From a virus (Duplodnaviria > Heunggongvirae > Uroviricota > Caudoviricetes), in IMG/VR virus record IMGVR_UViG_3300027733_000047: DNA of 64,000 bases. The stretch is one strand, 5' to 3'. Position 1 is the stretch's first letter; the number at the start of each line of letters is the position of its first letter. Positions 8,688 to 61,307 of this stretch are shown one piece after another. The notes below the pieces were generated by a model. It was not told the origin of the DNA. It did not search any database and saw only the letters and a program-made list of their open reading frames with translations. Both the position numbers and the translations under genes were made by a program.

Positions 8688-8740
8688 AACTGGGTTGCAT
8701 TTTAGCCACTCGCATTGTGGTTAGGTTGAATTGTGAGATA

Positions 8741-8780
8741 CAAATATCGCATTAGTTTTTCAAACCACCAAATTTATTTT
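8741..8780 (-). promoter_or_regulatory. Bacteroidota sigma-A-type promoter (TTTGG-N19-TAnnTTTG on minus strand)
   Basis: Plus strand reads caaatatcgc...ccaaatttatttt; drives 7821..8687. Confidence 0.55.
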
Positions 8781-8823
8781 GAATTATTTTTAAAATAGTT
8801 ATACACATATTATTTTTTATAAT

Positions 8824-8836
8824 GTGAATAACTTTG
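8824..8836. promoter_or_regulatory. half-site TGTGAATAACTTT (reverse complement of the TTATTCACA DnaA-box variant)
   Basis: Same extended motif AAGTTATNCACA as the other copies. Confidence 0.3.
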
Positions 8837-8842
8837 CACCCT

Positions 8843-8948
8843 AAAAAAAATAGCGTGTAGGTTGGAGTATACTTCCCGCCATTGTTAGTGCCGTATGTCA
8901 TTCAAATTGACAATACAAATATAGGATAATAAATTGAAACTACCAAAT
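8843..8948 (-). ncRNA. mini-unit D (candidate sRNA)
   Basis: Minus strand TTTGG-N19-TATATTTG, then tattgtcaatttgaatgacatacggcactaacaatggcgggaagtatactccaacctacacgctaTTTTTTTT; near-identical 5' segment to unit B. Confidence 0.45.
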
Positions 8949-9004
8949 TTATTTTAAAAAAAAATGCCCTACATTTGTAAGGCATTTAATTCGTGTGCTG
9001 ATTA

Positions 9005-9162
9005 ACACTGATAAGTTATCGGTATTATCTCAAACGCTTCAATAAAACCAGTTTCTGCTTGTAACACTTCAACAAGTGCAAGAGCATCAACTCTGTGTTC
9101 AAATGCTTTGTGCATAATACCCGCACCATTTTCAAATACGAGCCAAATTGTTTTTTCCATAA
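9005..9162 (-). CDS. small hypothetical protein (52 aa)
   Basis: My translation MEKTIWLVFENGAG...; promoter 9170-9230. Confidence 0.35.
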
Positions 9163-9307
9163 TAGATTGTTTTAATTGTGAGATACAAATATAGGATTAA
9201 TAATTCAAACTACCAAATATTTTTTGAAGTATTTTTAAAATATTTTTTTGGTGGTCTGGAATTAATGTTGTATGTTTGCTTTGTTTAAATGAATAGGTTA
9301 AAAGATA

Positions 9308-9345
9308 ATCCCTGATGTGTCTACATCGGGGATACTTTTTATTTT
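9308..9345 (+). terminator. plus-strand hairpin plus T-run
   Basis: atccctgatgt-gtctac-acatcggggat (11-bp stem, one G-U) then tttttatttt. Confidence 0.5.
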
Positions 9346-9354
9346 GTATAAACT

Positions 9355-9381
9355 AAAAAACCCCACACTTTTGGTGTAGGG
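9355..9381 (-). terminator. intrinsic terminator of 9406..9669
   Basis: Minus strand reads CCCTACAC-caaaa-GTGTGGGG then TTTTTT. Confidence 0.6.
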
Positions 9382-9405
9382 AATTTATTCACAATTAAAC
9401 TAACT

Positions 9406-32605: not shown

Positions 32606-32690
32606 TTTTTATTCCAAAATATAATCCTATATTTGCATAGCAATCATGCAAGACGACTACAAATCGGGAGGTATACTCCAACCTACCCCT
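32606..32690 (+). ncRNA. mini-unit H (candidate sRNA, no T-run)
   Basis: TATATTTG, then catagcaatcatgcaagacgactacaaatcgggaggtatactccaacctacc; shares gacgactacaaatcggga(a/g)gtatactccaac with unit E. Confidence 0.3.
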
Positions 32691-32691
32691 A

Positions 32692-32730
32692 TTTGCTAAA
32701 TTCTTTAGTACTTGCTAAAATCTTTAGTAT
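32692..32730. promoter_or_regulatory. two tandem TTGCTAAA-N3-TTTAGTA palindromes
   Basis: tttgctaaattctttagta / cttgctaaaatctttagtat directly after mini-unit H. Confidence 0.4.
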
Positions 32731-34262: not shown

Positions 34263-34988
34263 CTATATAGCAATGGCAAACCCTGTGGTAAATGCTACCT
34301 TATTATCAGCACCTTTGCCTGTTTGGTTTTTATACTTCAAACCAACTATAACACCCTGTTCGTCCAGAAAACGTAAATCAGTTTCATCACCGTTAACTAC
34401 TCTATAACCGTTATACGTTTCAGGTAACTTATTAAATACCATGGCTACATTATAACCTTTCTTTAATACCGCCATGGCATGTTTGTCGTTATCTTCACTC
34501 CTGCTAAAGGTTAAATGATAATTGCTAGGCATGGACCCGTCAAACCTTTTAGGATTCTTGGTATAATCATAAAATTGTATATCAGGATATAATTCGAAAA
34601 TATTCTTACCTTCACGTATCTTTAATTTTTCCCAACGTATATCACTAGTACCGTTTAACCTGAATACTGGTATTGCTTTACCTTCATGTTTTTTGATAGC
34701 TTTGCTCACCTCTAAATCTAATTGAGCTAAAAACTCTTTGCGATTGGCTAAATACCATTCAGTTTTATTACGACGACCTTCCTGAACTGTATCGTACATC
34801 CCACCAAACCCTGACTTAAATAAACAGGCCGATGAACACCCTGAACTAGCATGTGGACATAAATTAACACCCTGACTATTATCAGTATAAGGTGACATGT
34901 ACATAATATAGGTTATATAACCTAATTTAGCACCTTTGATTGTTTTGTGGTTGTTTGTGGTTAACAACGTACTTTTGTAGTAAGACAT
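34263..34988 (-). CDS. hypothetical Cys-cluster protein
   Basis: 241 aa; CPHASSGCSSAC cluster; promoter 35000-35055. Confidence 0.6.
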   Translation of the reverse strand: MSYYKSTLLTTNNHKTIKGAKLGYITYIMYMSPYTDNSQGVNLCPHASSGCSSACLFKSGFGGMYDTVQEGRRNKTEWYLANRKEFLAQLDLEVSKAIKKHEGKAIPVFRLNGTSDIRWEKLKIREGKNIFELYPDIQFYDYTKNPKRFDGSMPSNYHLTFSRSEDNDKHAMAVLKKGYNVAMVFNKLPETYNGYRVVNGDETDLRFLDEQGVIVGLKYKNQTGKGADNKVAFTTGFAIAI

Positions 34989-35061
34989 AAGCTTTAATGT
35001 TTTAGATTAAGAAAGTACAAATGTATGGCTATTTTTGATACGTTCCAAATTTATTTTGCCT

Positions 35062-35090
35062 GGCACATAACAAAGTTATCCACATCATGT
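35062..35090. promoter_or_regulatory. hairpin AAAGTTAT-CCACAtcatgtgc-ATAACTTT with a perfect DnaA box (35066-35074)
   Basis: At the edge of the ORF-free region, abutting the promoter of 34263..34988. Confidence 0.45.
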
Positions 35091-35547
35091 GCATAACTTT
35101 ATTTGGATAGGTAAATTATCCTATCATAAATTTGTAACCTCACTAACCTCGAAGTTATGATTCTGTTAATGTACCTAACCACAAAACAACCTAAATCCTT
35201 AAACAGTATCCCCGCTGCTATATCGCTGGACATGTTAATCCTCTGGACCCCTGAGCGGCGTCACCTGCAATATGAAAGGTTCATCGGCCCTGCTCCAGAA
35301 CCGCGAGTCGGTTAATCTAATATTAATTTTGGATTACTAGTTGACCTGAACCCCTTTTTTTCGTATACTTGTAAATAATATGTCTACATCGATAACTAGA
35401 ACCACAGTTGGACCTAAGTCAGGATTTGTTGACCCCCTAAAGAAAACATTCCCTCCTCTCATCTCCCGCTGCACACACAGCCTCCTGCATCAGGATGGCC
35501 ATTCTCAGATTTCCCCGTTAGACCCGCGCGGCGCCTAGCCCGAACCC

Positions 35548-35567
35548 ATGTACACTTTTGTGTATAT
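35548..35567. promoter_or_regulatory. palindrome ATGTACACTTTTGTGTATAT (copy 8)
   Basis: Inside the 1-kb ORF-free region. Confidence 0.5.
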
Positions 35568-35603
35568 AACTTAAAGATGATACGTTTAAGGATGCTCACA
35601 AAA

Positions 35604-35620
35604 TGCTAAATTCTTTAGCA
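35604..35620. promoter_or_regulatory. TGCTAAA-ttc-TTTAGCA palindrome
   Basis: Same family as 4741-4795 and 32692-32730; inside the ORF-free region. Confidence 0.4.
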
Positions 35621-35919
35621 CGGCTTCTCCCACGAAAAAAAAATTTCAGCCGAAAAAAGGGGGAGAGTTTACGGAGAGGGTAACCCTAAATGGCTTATCA
35701 CCCCAAAAGAAAAGTGGGTGCTAGGCATGAAAATGGGGTGCAAAAGTGTTCACCCCCATTTTAGGGGTGCAAATTCAACACATTTTAACACTTTTTACCA
35801 CTCCCTGACATTTTTTCAAAAAAAATACTGTAGAATGTTAAGGTGTCCAACATTAGTTTTATGGTACATATAAATAATAATATTTTTAGCAAATCGGAAA
35901 TTCTAGGTCCCGAAAAATC

Positions 35920-35939
35920 ATGTACACTTTTGTGTACAT
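35920..35939. promoter_or_regulatory. palindrome ATGTACACTTTTGTGTACAT (copy 9)
   Basis: Inside the ORF-free region, 30 bp from the HNH gene stop. Confidence 0.5.
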
Positions 35940-35969
35940 AATTTGTCCGATGGCCTTCGGCACATAATA

Positions 35970-36614
35970 TTAAAGATTCATTTTATCCCAGAATATGTCG
36001 TTATATGTTACGCCATTAATTATATCTGAGATTGCTCTATACTTTCTACCATAGATTTTTGCAATATCAGTCATGGTTAATCCGTCTTTATGTTTTTGTT
36101 TAATTTCTAATATTGTTTCTCTAGAAAAGAAAGTATGTCCACCTCTATTTTTAAAAGCTCCAGATTCCACAGCGTGTTTAATATTATCTTTATTATTTAT
36201 CCATTCTAAGTTATTAACTGTAGCGTTTCTTTTATCTAGGTCTATATGATTTACTTCGTTTTTATTTTCCATTCTGGGTATGAATGTTTTTGCTACTAGT
36301 CTATGTATGTATTGTTGTTTGGTTTCTAGTGTTTCATCTTTAGATAAAGCACATTTAGGGTAACCTTTATCAGATATATGAATAGATGTATAGTCGTGAT
36401 ACTTTAAGTCAAATATTCTACCCCAAGATGAGATTAGGTATCTATTTTGTTGTACATTATCATCATTTATTGTTTCCCAGATTTCTTCATCTAAATTATC
36501 TGGGATTACATTAAGTGGGTTTGTTACTCTAGCGTATTCTATATTGTTTTGTTGCAGATATTCATCTGTGAATGGTTCTAGGAGTTTTCTAAGTATTTGG
36601 GTTTCTTTGTTCAT
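35970..36614 (-). CDS. HNH homing endonuclease (NUMOD4-like + HNH)
   Basis: YLISSWGRIFDLKYHD (NUMOD4-like) and HIDLDKRNATVNNLEWINNKDN (HNH) motifs. Confidence 0.75.
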   Translation of the reverse strand: MNKETQILRKLLEPFTDEYLQQNNIEYARVTNPLNVIPDNLDEEIWETINDDNVQQNRYLISSWGRIFDLKYHDYTSIHISDKGYPKCALSKDETLETKQQYIHRLVAKTFIPRMENKNEVNHIDLDKRNATVNNLEWINNKDNIKHAVESGAFKNRGGHTFFSRETILEIKQKHKDGLTMTDIAKIYGRKYRAISDIINGVTYNDIFWDKMNL

Positions 36615-36858
36615 TTACTAATCTATTTTGTATATCCATGAGTGTTAAATTGGCTTCTTGGATTATATCCATTTGTTTTTGTACTATTGGGAGTAGTTTG
36701 CAGACTTCTTCTTTATCTTCATAATTTATTTGTTTGGCTAGGTTTCTCATAGCCAATATGGATAAATTTTTAACGTTGAAGGTATCGCTATAAATTTCTT
36801 TTAATAGTTGTTGTGTTGCGTTTTCGGATAATAGGTTTGTTTTTGCTTTTCTAGGCAT
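36589..36858 (-). CDS. hypothetical protein
   Basis: ORF in tightly packed cluster with shifted G+T-rich composition. Confidence 0.5.
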   Translation of the reverse strand: MPRKAKTNLLSENATQQLLKEIYSDTFNVKNLSILAMRNLAKQINYEDKEEVCKLLPIVQKQMDIIQEANLTLMDIQNRLVNEQRNPNT

Positions 36859-36888
36859 ATATTTTAATTTTTTGGGTTATGTTATATA

Positions 36889-49907: not shown

Positions 49908-50105
49908 TTAATAACGAGGAGATGAAAGTCTTAGGGGGTCAATTGTTCTTGTTTCCCTTCTATCTAACCTACGTATTTGTCTTTCGTACTTTCTAGTATT
50001 AGTTTCAAATTTATGTCTTGGGTTTGCCGCAGCATATGGTGACATATATGTAGTACAGCCATTTGAAATGGCAATAATAAAAATTAAAATAAATATTTTT
50101 TTCAT
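49908..50105 (-). CDS. small lipoprotein
   Basis: MKKIFILIFIIAISNGC lipobox. Confidence 0.5.
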   Translation of the reverse strand: MKKIFILIFIIAISNGCTTYMSPYAAANPRHKFETNTRKYERQIRRLDRRETRTIDPLRLSSPRY

Positions 50106-50662
50106 CGTATTAAAATTAAATTTCCTTTTTTAAAACCTGTTTTACCGTCAATTCCTTTCCACCAACATTGAAAAACAAAATTAAAGATTCCTTGTTGTGC
50201 ACCTTTATATATTCCATTCCATTTATCACCCAATTTATTTGTTTGATAAACCATCTCCCCGTATCTATTATATACCTGCCAACGAATTTCGGTTATTTTA
50301 AACGGAATTGGTGACCAAGCGTCATTAAGCCCATCTCCATTAGGTGTAAATGCGTTAGGAAAAAATATTGCCGATTCTGGACATTTTACAACCTTTACCC
50401 GATATATTCTAGTTGGGTTGCCGCATTCATCTTTATAATAGACTCTTATTAGATAATATCCTGTATCTCTCCAAGTTATTCTAACATTTGAATTTGTTGA
50501 TATTGTATCGCTATTAAGTGTCCATAACCAACCACCACTACTTGTTGATGCATTTGCCCAATAGTTAAAAGTATTCCTAACGTTTGGACATAGTTCAATC
50601 TCTTGCTGAGCTTTTACCGACAGGCTCACCGTAATTAATAATATAGATATGATATATCTCAT
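50102..50662 (-). CDS. secreted protein with T9SS type-B C-terminal sorting domain (CHU_C / gliding-motility-associated CTD)
   Basis: Signal peptide; C-terminus FFPNAFTPNGDGLNDAW...VYNRYGEMVYQT...WNGIYKG...GIFNFVF...GNLILIR matches the TIGR04131-type signature (FTPNGDGINDxF ... IFNRWG..VF ... WdGtykG ... GvYvY ... GtvtLiR). Confidence 0.75.
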   Translation of the reverse strand: MRYIISILLITVSLSVKAQQEIELCPNVRNTFNYWANASTSSGGWLWTLNSDTISTNSNVRITWRDTGYYLIRVYYKDECGNPTRIYRVKVVKCPESAIFFPNAFTPNGDGLNDAWSPIPFKITEIRWQVYNRYGEMVYQTNKLGDKWNGIYKGAQQGIFNFVFQCWWKGIDGKTGFKKGNLILIR

Positions 50663-58290: not shown

Positions 58291-58632
58291 TTAATTTTTA
58301 TATTCTACATATGTTATTTTAATTCCTAAGTCTTTTGCGTAAGCTATTTCTTCGGCTACGCCCTTAGATTTGTCCCAACCTTCCATCATGTAAACAATCA
58401 TTTCATCACATCTATTTAAGAATGTCAGACAAAAGTTTTCCCAAAAAGGCCAATCGGTTGGCATGTCAGGTTGAAAGTTTACTGCGGTATGTCCGTATAG
58501 TATTGGGCTAAAAGCTACAACGCCATTGTTGATAAGTTCAGCTGTATACTTGGAAACCTTTTGATAGTTTTCTTCTCTAACATTGTCATCAGGATGACTA
58601 TATGGAGATGAAACAAAGATTAGTTTTCTCAC
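58291..58632 (-). CDS. DUF4406 / nucleoside 2-deoxyribosyltransferase-like protein
   Basis: IFVSSPYS... ...CDEMIVYMMEGWDKSKGVAEEIAYAKDLG pattern. Confidence 0.5.
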   Translation of the reverse strand: MRKLIFVSSPYSHPDDNVREENYQKVSKYTAELINNGVVAFSPILYGHTAVNFQPDMPTDWPFWENFCLTFLNRCDEMIVYMMEGWDKSKGVAEEIAYAKDLGIKITYVEYKN

Positions 58633-59408
58633 TTCAAACGATTTTTAATTTCAGTTAATGTTGTTTGGTTTTCAAAGTTACCATCTAGGTAAAGTGTTTT
58701 CAATTGACCTTTGGTTTCTGTTTCCCAAGTTACTTTATCGAATAGTTTTAATTCACCATCGTCATCATTTTTACCAACGTACAAAAGTCCTGTAGCTGAT
58801 TTCTTCATACCATCATCTGTAATTGGGTCTTTAAAGATTTCACGACCTTCAAAATTAACCTCAACATATGTTGCTTTCATTGCAAACCCGAATGTATCGC
58901 GAGTGTTGAATTGGTAAGTGAATGAACCAACACCCAACACGATATTTGTGCTTGCAAATCCTTTTGCTTCTAATCTAGAACAGATTTCTTCTGCTCTGTC
59001 GATTGTGATGCTGTCACCATAGATTGCACCGATGTGTGAATCTAGGACCTTGTAACCTTGTTCGTTAATGGTTCCACCGAATACATCCCAAAGCAATTCA
59101 ATAACTCCTTTGTAAGATGGGTCTTCGTCATCAACTAAACTTACCATTTTAGAACGGGTATTATATCCGCAAACAATATCAACAGGGTCGCCTGAATCAG
59201 GACGTATTACCAATTTACCATCACGAGCTAGGATTTCTTCTTTGAGAATAGGTAAATACTCTGTACACATTCTCCAGAGGTCAAATGTATCACTTACCAT
59301 ACTAAGTATTCCTGTAGGATATTTTGCTAATAACCCTCTAATACCGTTTAATTCATCAGTAACTGTTTTTGTTACAGTTCTTTTTCTAGTTTCAATAACT
59401 TTTTTCAT
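58629..59408 (-). CDS. nicotinamide phosphoribosyltransferase-family protein, C-terminal half (split gene)
   Basis: KLVIRPDSGDPVDIV, IVLGVGSFTYQ, EIFKDPITD align with the NAMPT C-terminal half (LIIRPDSGNPLD, IAFGSGGGLLQ, NVFKDPVAD). Confidence 0.75.
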   Translation of the reverse strand: MKKVIETRKRTVTKTVTDELNGIRGLLAKYPTGILSMVSDTFDLWRMCTEYLPILKEEILARDGKLVIRPDSGDPVDIVCGYNTRSKMVSLVDDEDPSYKGVIELLWDVFGGTINEQGYKVLDSHIGAIYGDSITIDRAEEICSRLEAKGFASTNIVLGVGSFTYQFNTRDTFGFAMKATYVEVNFEGREIFKDPITDDGMKKSATGLLYVGKNDDDGELKLFDKVTWETETKGQLKTLYLDGNFENQTTLTEIKNRLK

Positions 59409-60476
59409 TATTTAAGTTTTAATTATACTTTTATTTATTCCTTTCTAAAAAATCCATCACTTCAATTTCTTTTGGAACATCTATATTTTTGAACTGTTCT
59501 TTGAACTTTTCAATTAGATGGTCAGCAATTTCCATTGATTCTACCGTAAATTTTATTCTTGTAATATCATCTGGATAATTCTCAAAATTTTCATCTTCGT
59601 ATTTTAAATAATATACTTTCATTGTTTAGGTTGTTTAAGTTTAGAATACAAATATACGAACAATATTTGAAATAACAAAATTAATTTTAAAGGTTTGTAT
59701 TAATTTAATACATTTTTTAGTTTTTTTATGTCTTTTGTGTAGGTAGTAGATATTTATTAGTATGAACCACGAACAAATATACAATAAAATCATTAATAAC
59801 GCAAAATCTCAAATAAGGTCTAAAAAAGATTCTTATTTTGAAAGACATCACATTATCCCTAAAACCGCTGGTGGTGATAATTCAAAAGAAAATATCGTTC
59901 TACTAACAGCTAAAGAACACTTTGTTTGCCACCGTCTATTATGTTTCATATACCCTGAATCAAAATCCCTACGTTTTGCTTTTTGGGCGATGTGTAACCA
60001 ATTAAAAGGCGATGTTAAACGAGATTATAAAGTAACATCAAGAACATACGAAGATGCAAAACTAAAATTCAAAGAAGTTAATTCATCTTTACATAAAGGT
60101 AAAAAACTTTCAGACGAACATCTGTTAAAAATTACCAAAAGAATGTTATCTGATGATAATCCAATGAAAGGTAGAAAAGGTTCTGATAATCCATTATATA
60201 AAAAAGAACGAAGTGAATACACCAAATCTAAAATTTCAAATACCAAACTCTTAAACCCAACAAAAAATTGTAATTTTAAAGGCTTATATGTTACACCTTT
60301 AGGTAAGTTTTATACTTCGGCAGAAGCATCTAAAATACATAAATTAGATAGGTCTGTCATAATTGAAAGATGTAAAGTAAAGTCCGATAAAGTTATTACA
60401 AAAAAAGGTGTATTCTTTTCTAAAGATTTAACAATTAATGATATTGGTAAAACATATAAAGAGGTTGGATGGGATT
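59409..60476. mobile_element. homing-endonuclease-bearing insertion splitting the NAMPT-family gene
   Basis: About 1.07 kb separates the N- and C-terminal NAMPT halves; it contains the HNH ORF and one small ORF. Confidence 0.55.
59431..59622 (-). CDS. hypothetical protein inside the insertion that splits the NAMPT gene
   Basis: 63-aa ORF with promoter variant 59640-59690. Confidence 0.45.
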   Translation of the reverse strand: MKVYYLKYEDENFENYPDDITRIKFTVESMEIADHLIEKFKEQFKNIDVPKEIEVMDFLERNK

Positions 60477-60499
60477 TTATATCTCAACCTCAGAAATAA
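59762..60499 (+). CDS. HNH homing endonuclease
   Basis: FERHHIIPKTAGGDNSKENIVLLTAKEHFVCH HNH motif; plus strand between the two NAMPT halves. Confidence 0.7.
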   Translation: MNHEQIYNKIINNAKSQIRSKKDSYFERHHIIPKTAGGDNSKENIVLLTAKEHFVCHRLLCFIYPESKSLRFAFWAMCNQLKGDVKRDYKVTSRTYEDAKLKFKEVNSSLHKGKKLSDEHLLKITKRMLSDDNPMKGRKGSDNPLYKKERSEYTKSKISNTKLLNPTKNCNFKGLYVTPLGKFYTSAEASKIHKLDRSVIIERCKVKSDKVITKKGVFFSKDLTINDIGKTYKEVGWDFISQPQK

Positions 60500-61307
60500 T
60501 GTTTCCATTATCATCATAAGTTATCTCTACTTTATATTCTTCTTCAACTTCAACCTTTTTAAACTCGGTTATAGAGCACATTACCGAGTGTTCGGTTGCG
60601 TTTACGCTACCACCAACGAATCCTGTTTCACCATAATACTTTCTAGCACCGCCGATAGCTGGCAATGAATCGGTACCTGAGAATGATGTCAAGTGACCTA
60701 ACCCTGAGCTTATTGTTGCATCGATTGAATCCAATCCTCTCATTGAGAAATCATGTCCTTGCCAGTCGATAAACCATGCTCTTTCAGCATCAGTTTTTTC
60801 TTGCCACTTGGTTAATACCTTACGATATTGGTGAGCGATGGTAGCAGATGTTGTTGGTTTCCACAAAAGGTTTGAAATGATTGTTTCAAGGTAATTTGTT
60901 ATCCAATAGAAATCAGGATGTGTGTTGTGGATTGTAAGAATAGGAATTCTCATTGGTACTAGTGTTCCTTCTTCTAGTATCTTTACATGGATAGGTAAGT
61001 AACCCAAGTCATGTAGTTTTTCAAAGTGTGTAACATCGTAATCGGTACCTAAGTACATTGATAGTTCGCGTTTAATTTCACCACAAACTTCAGATTTCAT
61101 TCTATTAAAGAAATCATCTCTGAATGCTTCGTTGATTTGTTTCATTACCATTTGTTGACCAAATGATACAACTTTATCACAACCCTTTGGAGCGTATTTG
61201 TTGCTACGTGGTGTAAAGTTTGAATAAACTAATGTTGTACCTTGTGGATACATTTGATGGTGTGCTGTTTTATAACCATCGGTAAGTAAAAGTGGATTGA
61301 TTTTCAT
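60477..61307 (-). CDS. nicotinamide phosphoribosyltransferase-family protein, N-terminal half (split gene)
   Basis: INPLLLTDGYKTAHHQMYPQGT ... FSGTDSLPAIGGARKYYG ... ATEHSVM align with the NAMPT N-terminal half (NILLATDSYKVTHYKQYP ... FKGTDTVAGLALIKKYYG ... AAEHSTI); the C-terminal roughly 30 aa do not align. Confidence 0.75.
   Translation of the reverse strand: MKINPLLLTDGYKTAHHQMYPQGTTLVYSNFTPRSNKYAPKGCDKVVSFGQQMVMKQINEAFRDDFFNRMKSEVCGEIKRELSMYLGTDYDVTHFEKLHDLGYLPIHVKILEEGTLVPMRIPILTIHNTHPDFYWITNYLETIISNLLWKPTTSATIAHQYRKVLTKWQEKTDAERAWFIDWQGHDFSMRGLDSIDATISSGLGHLTSFSGTDSLPAIGGARKYYGETGFVGGSVNATEHSVMCSITEFKKVEVEEEYKVEITYDDNGNIISEVEI

Follow-up and report, generated by a model that had tools for sequence, protein, structure and literature searches.

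A conserved gene-free region at the head of an early-type gene array in a putative large Bacteroidota phage: a candidate genome-end and early-control site

Positions 34989-35969 (981 nt) form the longest gap in the 64-kb window, that is, the whole stretch of DNA that was analysed, in which none of the six frames holds an open reading frame of at least 60 aa. The runner-up, at 8688-9405, measures 718 nt, and the preliminary description of this DNA was thus right to single out the former as the only long ORF-free stretch. Gene calls made by JGI on independent assemblies of the window phage likewise place no genes there, a tRNA scan found none, and DNA similarity searches against 50,697 phage records, in both near and distant modes, returned no match. 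The stretch is flanked by a GP88-family gene on one side and, as had been noted before, directly by an HNH endonuclease gene on the other, while the other neighbours are small ORFs without a Pfam family. It is best read as protein-free cis-acting DNA that is a composite of three parts, here denoted A, B and C, with the following features.

34263-34988, minus strand: GP88-family gene (PF17338; Pfam E = 1.7e-45), the first gene downstream of the region
34989-35140: part C, two divergent Bacteroidota-type promoters around an inverted DnaA-box-like pair
35018-35049, minus strand: GP88 promoter TTTGGAACGTATCAAAAATAGCCATACATTTG, the first of a 50-promoter array reaching down to coordinate 662
35069-35103: inverted pair of DnaA-box consensus sites, TTATCCACA-TCA-TGTGCATAA on the plus strand, between the divergent promoters
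35102-35134, plus strand: Bacteroidota-type promoter TTTG-N21-TAAATTTG, a strict match, pointing from GP88 into the GC-rich part
35190-35546, no strand: part B, GC-rich (0.48) filler, lineage-specific, without a conserved ORF or stable fold
35547-35944: part A, a conserved module of ~400 bp between two TGTACAC-N4-GTGTACA palindromes
35547-35572 (core 35549-35566), read on the minus strand: palindrome 2, TATACAC-AAAA-GTGTACA, the downstream border of the module
35604-35620, no strand: palindrome TGCTAAA-TTC-TTTAGCA
35630-35681, minus strand: conserved block ACCCTCTCCGTAAACTCTCCCCCTTTTTTCGGCTGAAATTTTTTTTT, whose first base, 35681, is position X
35691-35770, minus strand: three imperfect direct repeats GCACCC(C/A) with complementary GGGGTG copies, directly upstream of position X
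35771-35829, minus strand: T8/A6 tract followed by 10-bp helically phased repeats TGTCAGGGAG, TGGTAAAAAG, TGTTAAAATG, TGTTGAATTT
35919-35944 (core 35921-35938), no strand: palindrome 1, TGTACAC-AAAA-GTGTACA, the upstream border of the module
35945-35963, minus strand: small GGCC-centred hairpin GTGCCGAAGGCCATCGGAC, predicted from the sequence, immediately upstream of palindrome 1
35970-36614, minus strand: HNH_3 endonuclease gene (Pfam HNH_3)
35970-36887, minus strand: mobile cassette of the HNH_3 gene and an 89-aa ORF (36589-36858), adjoining the region

The base composition of the region is uneven. The GC shift that had been ascribed to the entire stretch is real in part B, whose GC content of 0.482 tops all 357-nt segments (mean 0.324, s.d. 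0.042), but it is only local, as the module has 0.352 and positions 34989-35189 have 0.299. Both TGTACAC palindromes and the TGCTAAA palindrome pointed out earlier are present, the former as 26-nt repeats; the GC hairpins with T-runs listed alongside them did not hold up, a terminator scan of 34500-36700 giving 0 matches.

The region also marks a boundary in the genome. On the gene strand, 50 of the 57 strict promoters lie at or below 35049 and 7 at 36-64 kb, and the same asymmetry is seen in 21 related loci, where promoter density is 1.42 per kb on the downstream side and 0.26 per kb on the upstream side, while both the GC skew and the AT skew change regime at 35-36 kb. The upstream side is evidently variable, since only a 113-aa paralogous family recurs there. 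GP88, the protein of which is just 45-50% identical to that of the closest isolates, is best read as the first gene of a promoter-dense, early-type array of a large Bacteroidota phage. A host search by a scan of GTDB genomes turned up nothing but misbinned MAG contigs whose taxon labels were inconsistent. The window yielded no terminase, and neither a terminase gene nor a packaging protein could be tied to the site. The HNH gene stands apart from these features. A 90%-identical relative (L083) keeps the whole region at ~90-97% identity and has 33 bp in place of window positions 35970-36887, with both flanks aligning; the cassette is therefore not part of the region.

Part A is conserved across related phages. 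In the comparison, for which all loci were anchored on GP88 homologues, iterated nhmmer searches covered 160 loci on uncultured phage contigs and detected the module ahead of GP88 in more than 45, with its blocks in order, and in about 25 divergent loci it lies 470-620 nt before GP88. First, the bordering palindromes recur: copies are paired 270-600 bp apart in ~38 related loci, and the left-arm variant TATACAC is likewise found in palindrome 2 of L006, L007, L008, L017, L022, L083, L087 and L138. The 26-nt repeats hold the pattern TGTACAC-N4-GTGTA(C/T)A, of which the window has 6 matches at up to three mismatches, where 0 would be expected. The GGCC-centred hairpin next to palindrome 1 is present in two copies in L083, and motifs resembling GTGCCG..GGCCA..CGGAC stand beside the palindromes in L004, L017, L022, L072 and L104. 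Next, the phased repeats conform to GTGGtAaAAaGTGG.Aaaatgtg, the consensus of the family; L007, L125, L104 and L006 have 3-4 such units, repeated every 10 bp exactly. The GCACCC(C/A) zone is lineage-specific, other short tandem repeats occupying the same place in L412, L007, L008, L106 and L151. Finally, the block at 35630-35681 is, palindromes aside, among the best conserved stretches of the module. Two copies related to the TGCTAAA palindrome, CTAAAGAnTTTAGCAA, are located in an intergenic region at ~32.7 kb. Pattern scans of IMG/VR with TTTTTCRGCYNAAATTTT and AGTGGTAAAAAGTGG gave only 3 new family members, and were of no use for mapping ends because the matches were mostly unrelated AT-rich sequence.

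Contigs of related phages repeatedly begin inside the module. Seven contigs (L094, L423, L085, L099, L135, L409 and L413), which represent at least six related phages, start at model positions 226-228, within 1-2 nt of the position homologous to position X, although L409 and L413 represent one phage and may share reads. These are 7 of the 27 metagenome loci that have their 5′ end in or near the module; L148 and L149 among these are limited by their flanks and do not mark true contig ends, which leaves the picture unchanged. The phages and datasets behind the contigs that start at X differ, as do the naming schemes (SPAdes-style NODE, JGI, ENA scaffold and Logan), and the starts of these contigs lie outside the upstream tandem repeats, where an artefact of the assembly graph would be expected. 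In isolated podophages, the GP88 homologues are found 0.5-2.5 kb from the left end of the records. A second, looser cluster of contig starts falls at model positions 54-80, and the contigs of the P0016, P0024 and P0081 phages start at positions other than X. For the window phage, the contigs from the four assemblies shown (10 contigs read) run through X or break elsewhere, that of L404 at palindrome 1, and the terminus appears to be visible in the contigs of relatives only. The module is internal in contigs of 353-368 kb, which fits circular or concatemeric assemblies and lends no support to an end. A matching right end was not found in a lookup of the upstream gene of the P0040 phage, which gave a single 632-nt scaffold (sample ERZ28613002); this ends 29 nt before X, within the tandem repeat, and a repeat-driven failure of assembly may therefore also lie behind such breaks.

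Because the assembled DNA of at least six related phages begins at the first base of the conserved block, we infer that the module holds an end-making site. The region as a whole would then be a terminal and early-control element that works in cis and heads the early array, a reading that, together with the genome-end site in the module, has in our judgement about an even chance of being correct. The option of a regulatory hub or cis-acting DNA site, raised in the preliminary description, gains support from the conserved non-coding architecture, the operator-like palindromes and the phased repeats, and further from the divergent promoters with their DnaA-box-like sites and from the position at the head of a promoter-dense array.

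A narrower version of that option would make the region purely a transcriptional control hub or boundary, in which the palindromes are operators of a phage regulator, the module insulates the operon-like genes upstream from the early array, and the repeated contig starts arise because the variable tandem repeats directly upstream of X break the assembly. Six further intergenic sites in the window do carry the 18-bp palindrome, at four of which the -33 element of a promoter follows within ~30 nt, and elsewhere in the genome it would be an operator-like site directly upstream of promoters; within the module, however, neither palindrome is followed by a canonical promoter as judged by the strict pattern. 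The shift in promoter density falls exactly at the region, as a boundary would have it. As to the contig starts, many members of the family have short tandem repeats directly upstream of X and the one upstream scaffold ends there, but a break in the assembly graph would put the starts k-1 nt earlier, inside the repeat, which is not the case here, and the 7 contigs begin within 1-2 nt of X across different datasets and naming schemes. A purely transcriptional role is, on this evidence, unlikely.

Part C brings in a further alternative. The DnaA-box hairpin that had been placed at 35062-35090 turns out to be a genuine box pair located instead at 35069-35103, with TTATCCACA at 35076-35084 (plus strand) and TTATGCACA at 35088-35096 (minus strand) separated by 3 bp. 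It probably forms no hairpin, since the arm mismatches fall at the N position and the spacers vary. The pair is retained in L083-L085 and L425 with a spacer of 3 to ~16 nt, the box variants TTATCAACA and TTATTAACA are present in relatives, and the plus-strand promoter at 35102-35134, as the reverse-complement pattern CAAAnnTA-N20/21-CAAA, is retained in L084, L085 and L425 despite a different transcribed sequence. Much of part C is repeated in the genome: positions 34991-35057 match 9 other intergenic sites, an inverted AAGTTATnCACA..TGTGnATAACTT followed by AAAATAAATTTGG-N19-TAnnTTTG is found at 6.9, 8.8, 16.0 and 20.8 kb, with the inverted repeat alone at 32.7 kb, and the box-pair cassette has at least 5 other copies in the window. 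Part C is therefore a copy of a recurrent intergenic cassette of a kind like the promoter-early stem-loop (PeSL), in which an inverted repeat and a putative early promoter stand together at many sites.

Two perfect DnaA-box consensus sites 3 bp apart would also suit a replication origin, with host DnaA acting on the two boxes, a phage initiator on the 10-bp or GCACCC repeats, melting of the T8/A6 tract or of an AT-rich flank, and activation by transcription from the flanking promoters. Boxes are indeed ~6-fold enriched between the module and GP88 in 29 related loci (0.69 against 0.11 per kb), yet strict boxes are present there in only 6 of the 29. Over the whole window, the motif TTATNCACA is found 20 times where 5.7 would be expected, and since at least four intergenic regions of the window carry inverted box pairs (~8.8, 16.0 and 32.75 kb among them), the others beside ordinary promoters, the pair at 35069-35103 is no unique cluster. 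The phased repeats are iteron-like and, together with the A/T tract, conserved in the family as part of a conserved non-coding island, and the repeats, the tract and the DnaA-like boxes would in fact suit an origin as well as they suit a terminus. An iteron-type origin in the classical sense, with at least three direct repeats of ~17-22 bp and an adjacent initiator gene, was nevertheless rejected, as the units here are of 10 bp in 3-4 copies and the neighbours are GP88, the HNH gene and small ORFs. The cumulative GC skew changes slope at the region as it might at an origin, but its sign does not change and the slope change coincides with a change in gene class. An origin would, moreover, leave the contig starts at X unexplained, and altogether it appears improbable.

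Part B is specific to this lineage. L083 matches positions 35190-35546 at ~97% identity, apart from 42-nt and 4-nt indels in L083, whereas the segment cannot be aligned in L084 or L085 (GP88 89% and 81%, respectively) or in any other locus; tblastx and blastn searches of the more than 400 fetched loci, and of the window outside this segment, retrieved L083 and L082 only. Two plus-strand ORFs of 52 aa, neither of which was assigned to a family in a Pfam search, are found in and around it, of which the one at 35157-35315, after the plus-strand promoter, is not conserved in L084, and the second, at 35380-35538, is frameshifted in L083. In relatives, the slot after palindrome 2 holds a conserved antisense gene of ~71-74 aa (L001, L430, L437 and L427) or other small antisense ORFs. 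An antisense HNH-like ORF in L006-L008, which overlaps palindrome 2, was rejected as a homologue because the window matches only its six palindrome-encoded residues. Part B would fill the slot that in relatives is taken by a small antisense gene or a small hairpin element, and its transcription, if any, would start from the antisense promoter at 35102-35134.

These antisense genes, the HNH-like ORFs of L006-L008 included, raise the question of whether part B is itself a decayed gene, a remnant of the relatives' small antisense gene or of some other insert, and the region long only because of it. The antisense promoter is retained and the composition looks foreign (GC of 0.48 against 0.32), but protein similarity to the antisense genes of relatives is not significant (best tblastn E = 0.43), tblastx of part B against all fetched loci finds nothing in favour of such a remnant, and ~620 nt of conserved gene-free sequence would be left without part B, which makes this explanation quite improbable. 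The suspicion that relatives carry a normal gene at this place is thus correct for some of them, which have the small antisense gene past the second palindrome, but no significant similarity to it is found in the window.

A structured non-coding RNA, a ribozyme or an HNH-linked group I intron remnant, as had also been considered, is highly improbable and largely refuted: the region is GC-enriched within an AT-rich genome, adjoins an HNH gene and has a module that folds somewhat better than shuffles (z = -2.5 and -2.9), but these scores mostly come from short hairpins, the two palindromes among them. The GC-rich part (35185-35550) shows no excess fold (z = 0.0 and -0.72 against shuffles), RNAalifold run for both strands of 31 module homologues recovers only a 4-bp palindrome core, and the Rfam scan proposed earlier found no family at gathering in the whole window and, for 34700-36200 at E<=10, no credible match or intron model. 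The region is not flanked by a split gene, and the degenerate intron shell suggested around the HNH gene is refuted by L083, which has the region intact without the cassette.

In the reading of the region as cis-acting terminal and early-control DNA, the module would carry the recognition and cutting site for one end of the packaged genome, of the cos, pac or short-terminal-repeat type, and the phased repeats would be an array bound by packaging proteins. The first genes to reach the cell, and the first expressed, would be GP88 and the many small ones that follow, with part C, a standard cassette of the window phage with back-to-back host-type promoters, driving GP88. In such a model the contig starts would be genuine virion ends, the window phage would have an end of this kind too, and the repeats, palindromes and boxes would each have their binders. 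A more far-reaching version, in which large freshwater Bacteroidota phages, some of ~360 kb, package from a fixed site in the module and enter the cell GP88-end first, and in which host DnaA or a phage mimic provides T5-iss-like gating of the entering end and of the early promoters via the box pairs and the 18-bp palindromes, is a long shot.

If the reading holds, the module would provide a sequence landmark for a genome end in widespread uncultured freshwater Bacteroidota phages, some apparently of ~360 kb, and would locate the start of the early genes, which would aid the orientation of contigs, the separation of early from later gene sets and the prediction of promoters. Whether host DnaA takes part in the entry or early control of phages would become testable in another phylum, and T5-iss-like gating, if true, would be an entry and early-control device new outside the T5 group.

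Among known systems, oriC, P1 oriR and plasmid oriV combine DnaA-box consensus sites with helically phased direct repeats and an A/T tract. The region described here differs from these in having two boxes that are not unique to the locus, repeat units of 10 bp and no adjacent initiator gene. The cosQ-cosN-cosB region of lambda, the pacL-pacC-pacR region of SPP1 and the T7 left end are gene-free segments with phased short repeats near a defined cut; the short repeat arrays lie beside the end, and the first early promoters and an early gene come next. Here, too, a gene-free segment with phased repeats precedes the first early promoters and an early gene. In contrast to the known examples, no terminase gene is adjacent, no right end or terminal repeat was found, and the end is seen as the contig starts of relatives only.

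Part C has a likely counterpart in the PeSL cassettes of T4-type phages (PMC2839356, PMC4122927). The resemblance lies in a stem-loop-like inverted repeat joined to a host-type early promoter and repeated before many small genes of a hyperplastic region. The two differ in the promoter, which here is of the Bacteroidota type (TTTG / TAnnTTTG) rather than a sigma-70 promoter, and in the inverted repeat, the arms of which in part C keep the DnaA-box consensus rather than their pairing, at a spacing of 3 to 16 nt.

The injection stop signal region in the first-step-transfer DNA of T5 has untranslated repeats of ~1.2 kb (bioRxiv 10.1101/866236, Davison). That untranslated region is better conserved than the neighbouring ORFs, is rich in palindromes and in direct and inverted repeats, and has eight DnaA boxes or variants of them (TTATCCACA, TTATGCACA, TTATCAACA) with pairs 3 bp apart; it sits within a terminal repeat of 10 kb, at the distal end of the pre-early genes, and in some T5 members an HNH endonuclease gene lies between the repeat regions (10.1101/866236). 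The two regions share no sequence similarity, the hosts belong to different phyla, there are two boxes here against eight, and the position here is ahead of the array's first gene instead of at the far end of the pre-early genes. In their sequence features, nevertheless, both are large, untranslated, repeat-packed regions of the early genome that are better conserved than the neighbouring ORFs, and the likeness extends to a box pair with 3-bp spacing, to variant boxes in relatives and to an HNH cassette at the edge. The region would thus represent a second case, unrelated to T5, in which palindromes and paired DnaA-box-like sites occur together in untranslated DNA that is conserved.

The 981 nt at 34989-35969, flanked by a GP88-family gene and an HNH_3 gene, constitute the longest stretch without any ORF of at least 60 aa in the 64-kb window (the runner-up measures 718 nt), and independent JGI assemblies of the window phage have zero called genes there, which confirms the ORF-free stretch claimed in the preliminary description. 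The credible genes of the window are all on the - strand. The raised GC that had been attributed to the whole stretch is real but confined to 35190-35546, where the value of 0.482 is the maximum among all 357-nt windows (mean 0.324, sd 0.042). Both the TGTACAC palindromes and the TGCTAAA palindrome were recovered, and the DnaA-box hairpin indeed consists of two perfect DnaA-box consensus sites in inverted orientation, located not at 35062-35090 but at 35069-35103; a terminator scan returned zero of the GC hairpins with T-runs that had been listed.

Features of the region and its flanks
34263-34988: GP88-family gene, one flank
34989 to ~35140: part C, with two strict matches to the Bacteroidota promoter pattern TTTG-N18-21-TAnnTTTG
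35018-35049, - strand: promoter toward GP88, strict pattern match
35102-35134, + strand: opposite-facing promoter, strict pattern match
35546 to 35190: part B, GC-rich filler
35944 to 35547, - strand (read on the gene strand): part A, the module, bounded by both palindromes
35919-35944 and 35547-35572: palindromes 1 and 2, 26-nt repeats with TGTACAC-N4-GTGTACA
Module element 1, in order: T8/A6 tract
Module element 2: four units of 10 bp, exactly in phase with the helix, TGTCAGGGAG, TGGTAAAAAG, TGTTAAAATG and TGTTGAATTT
Module element 3: three GCACCC(C/A) repeats and complementary GGGGTG copies
Module element 4: conserved block ACCCTCTCCGTAAACTCTCCCCCTTTTTTCGGCTGAAATTTTTTTTT
Module element 5: TGCTAAA palindrome, 35604-35620
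35970-36614: HNH_3 gene, other flank

The module has counterparts in a comparison set assembled via GP88 homologues (80 IMG/VR loci, 80 metagenome loci and further assemblies; L-numbers denote these loci of related phages). About 38 loci have a pair of these palindromes ahead of GP88, spaced 270-600 bp, and iterated nhmmer searches, seeded with the window module and run to convergence, recover the family in over 45 of the 160 loci fetched first. Its blocks keep a constant order, running from a palindrome through GTACC-N10-CACGT, a T-run and 3-4 tandem GTGGTAAAAA units of 10-bp period to AAAATGGGAAA and TTAtgCTCT..AAAAACtCTC..TTTTTCaGCCaAAATTTT, often followed by one or two ATGTTCCACGTGGAACAT palindromes, absent from the window, before the closing palindrome. 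RNAalifold detected no structure shared by 31 non-redundant members on either strand beyond the palindrome, and it is therefore the linear motifs that are conserved, as would be expected for protein-binding DNA. In about 25 divergent loci, an ORF-poor interval of 470-620 nt separates the module end from the start of GP88. The module has no match in Rfam or the phage record collection and thus represents a previously undescribed family within a familiar class of elements.

The 18-bp palindrome TGTACAC-N4-GTGTACA has six further copies in the window (7377, 9724, 17180, 21336, 28868 and 34240), all intergenic, four of which directly follow a stop codon and lie at most ~30 nt upstream of a promoter -33 element; both L108 palindromes are the symmetric variant TGTACAG-AAAT-CTGTACA. 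The CTAAAGAnTTTAGCAA palindrome, present once in the region at 35604-35620, occurs as two tandem copies at ~32690-32730 on the - strand, with a DnaA-like box pair on one side and a copy of a three-hairpin element on the other.

In part C, the inverted box pair sits between the divergent promoters. Nine other intergenic sites match window 34991-35057, and the unit, AAGTTATnCACA-loop-TGTGnATAACTT followed by AAAATAAATTTGG-N19-TAnnTTTG, recurs at ~6.9, 8.8, 16.0 and 20.8 kb, with the inverted repeat alone at 32.7 kb; TTATNCACA occurs 20 times in the window against 5.7 expected. The box arms hold their consensus while their spacing varies from 3 to ~16 nt, arm mismatches are located at the N position of the box, and L084, L085 and L425 retain both boxes around an altered spacer. 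All this fits a site bound sequence-specifically by DnaA or a look-alike protein better than it fits a hairpin.

The promoter toward GP88 is the first of an array. On the gene strand the strict pattern occurs 57 times, 50 of them in 662-35049 (about one per 0.7 kb) and seven in 36-64 kb; the array promoters are mostly near-identical (TTTGGTAGTTTGAATTATTAATCTTATATTTG), and nearly each small gene there has its own. Across 21 related loci, promoter density is 1.42 per kb downstream of GP88 versus 0.26 per kb upstream of the module, and at 35-36 kb both skews, GC and AT, switch to another regime. The region therefore marks a conserved boundary, with an operon-like part upstream and, downstream, an array of small genes dense in promoters, of the kind typical of phage early regions. 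The promoter type places the host in Bacteroidota, together with the phage gene at 50102-50662, which combines a PKD domain with a CHU_C type IX secretion sorting domain. With ordered conserved motifs, a border position and shared operator-like sites, the earlier option of a regulatory hub or cis site is thus supported and refined.

A more specific clue comes from contig ends. Among 27 metagenome loci whose 5′ end lies in or near the module (two of which, L148 and L149, are flank-limited and not true contig ends), seven start at positions 226-228 of the module profile: L094 (a 57-kb SPAdes-style NODE contig), L135, L099, L085 and L423 (JGI), L409 (an ENA scaffold) and L413 (a Logan contig). 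They represent at least six different phages, L409 and L413 being one phage with possibly identical reads. The starts fall 23-25 nt ahead of the T-run of the conserved block, and the homologous window base is 35681, at the junction of agggtt and ACCCTCTCCG. Other assemblies of these phages continue through the position, as circular or concatemeric cell-associated DNA would lead one to expect. The contigs of the window phage itself either run across it or break at palindrome 1; in one sample an upstream scaffold ends 29 nt before the base homologous to 35681, within a repeat, and a search for the right genome end found none. A second, looser cluster of contig starts lies at model positions 54-80, near GTACC..CACGT (L132, L418, L438, L104, L088 and L096). 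The starts at positions 226-228 fall outside the short tandem repeats just upstream, where a de Bruijn-graph break would fall, and are good but indirect evidence for what would be a physical genome end. Were the region a purely regulatory hub, which is unlikely, these starts would be artefactual contig breaks.

We propose that the region is a cis-acting terminal and early-control region. The module would be the cut site of the packaged genome, or at least its end, the phased repeats a putative protein-binding array, the palindromes and box pairs putative operators common to other early promoters, and GP88 the first gene expressed. That the region is non-coding and acts at the DNA level is very probable, while a terminus function specifically has close to an even chance. 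A replication origin, an improbable alternative, fits the boxes, the repeats and the A/T tract, but it leaves the contig starts unaccounted for, and the boxes are not specific to the locus.

Part B appears to be filler specific to this lineage, perhaps the remains of a gene once inserted there. Its closest comparison is L083, a 68-kb freshwater contig of a close relative (GP88 91% identical), alignable over the whole region with ~97% identity downstream of palindrome 2, filler included, and lower identity in the upstream half of the module; relative to the window, L083 also has a 734-bp insertion near the GP88 3′ end (L083:4671-5405, against window 34316-34318). The 42-nt indel and the 4-nt microsatellite indel that interrupt the filler alignment argue against coding. 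Two 52-aa + strand ORFs of part B have no Pfam family, and one is frameshifted in L083, the other not kept in L084. Beyond L083, no locus, L084, L085 and L425 included, showed a counterpart of the filler; the antisense promoter is kept, in contrast to the sequence transcribed from it. Relatives carry in the same slot a small antisense gene of a 71-74-aa family (L001, L430, L437, L427), other small antisense ORFs, an antisense HNH-like ORF overlapping palindrome 2 (L006-L008), or the three-hairpin element with its own antisense promoter, none with significant similarity to the window (best match E = 0.43). A decayed gene, compatible with the other readings, is a quite doubtful explanation of part B.

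The ~71-74-aa protein (MAKxYxYG..F.SFLAKEHWIL.MNLRSLEYI.DHGHVTHPAD...; L001:5572-5796, L430:2060-2284, L437:2123-2272 as a 49-aa ORF, L428:1048-1263), conserved between module and GP88 in part of the family, has no Pfam family. Nor does the antisense 138-139-aa ORF (L006:5204-5620, L007:5029-5448, L008:4372-4791), with the HNH-like motif DHIVPV...N..DNRLKG, have a Pfam match; within it the palindrome codes MYTNVY. Together with the window HNH cassette beside palindrome 1, this ORF suggests that endonuclease genes insert preferentially at the edges of the module. The three-hairpin element reads ..AAAAAATAT..GTAGGTTGGAGTATACCTCCCG, a variable hairpin, GTCCCGT, a second variable hairpin and aCAAAGATAGG-N19-CTACCAAATTTATTT. 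Since its 3′ part is the reverse complement of the standard phage promoter, transcription of the element would run opposite to the genes and give a ~100-nt RNA with a T-run at its end. Judged by eye, the two variable hairpins show covariation across 33 non-redundant copies, and Rfam has no match. It occurs in many related loci (e.g. L007:5807, L122:872), in most relatives with one copy ~250 nt upstream of GP88.

Other elements in the window
~32679, 15604, 7506, 6832 and 5705, - strand: three-hairpin element copies
~4810, 6321 and 8864, + strand: three-hairpin element copies
58629-61307: apparently split nicotinamide phosphoribosyltransferase gene
60477-61307, - strand: its N-terminal part
58629-59408, - strand: its C-terminal NAPRTase part
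59762-60499, + strand: HNH/NUMOD3 endonuclease ORF, 245 aa, between both parts

The split locus, where no Rfam intron was found, may be an intron or a free-standing endonuclease insertion.

A structured RNA or intron is the least probable reading, with hardly any chance of being correct. Across the whole window no Rfam family reached its gathering score, and over 34700-36200 no credible match appeared at E<=10; no tRNAs were found in the window. The GC-rich part folds no better than shuffles (z = 0.0 and -0.72 on the two strands); the inter-palindrome module reaches z = -2.5 and -2.9, much of it from the palindromes and other short hairpins. With the RNAalifold result, the suggested long non-coding RNA is not supported and a ribozyme is rejected. 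Also rejected is a degenerate group I intron shell around the HNH gene, given the Rfam blank and L083, which keeps the region and has 33 bp in place of window 35970-36887, lacking the HNH gene and an 89-aa ORF; the endonuclease cassette is therefore an independent insertion.

Among known systems, two resemblances may be drawn, neither with sequence similarity nor as a claim of membership. Part C is reminiscent of the PeSL cassettes (promoter plus stem-loop) known from T4-type phages (PMC2839356, PMC4122927). The nearest described match in appearance, by sequence features alone, lies in the first-step-transfer DNA of T5. It is an untranslated repeat region, a gene-free stretch of ~1.2 kb with palindromes and repeats better conserved than ORFs and with DnaA and variant boxes paired 3 bp apart, where some members of the T5 group have an HNH gene inserted between repeat regions (bioRxiv 10.1101/866236).
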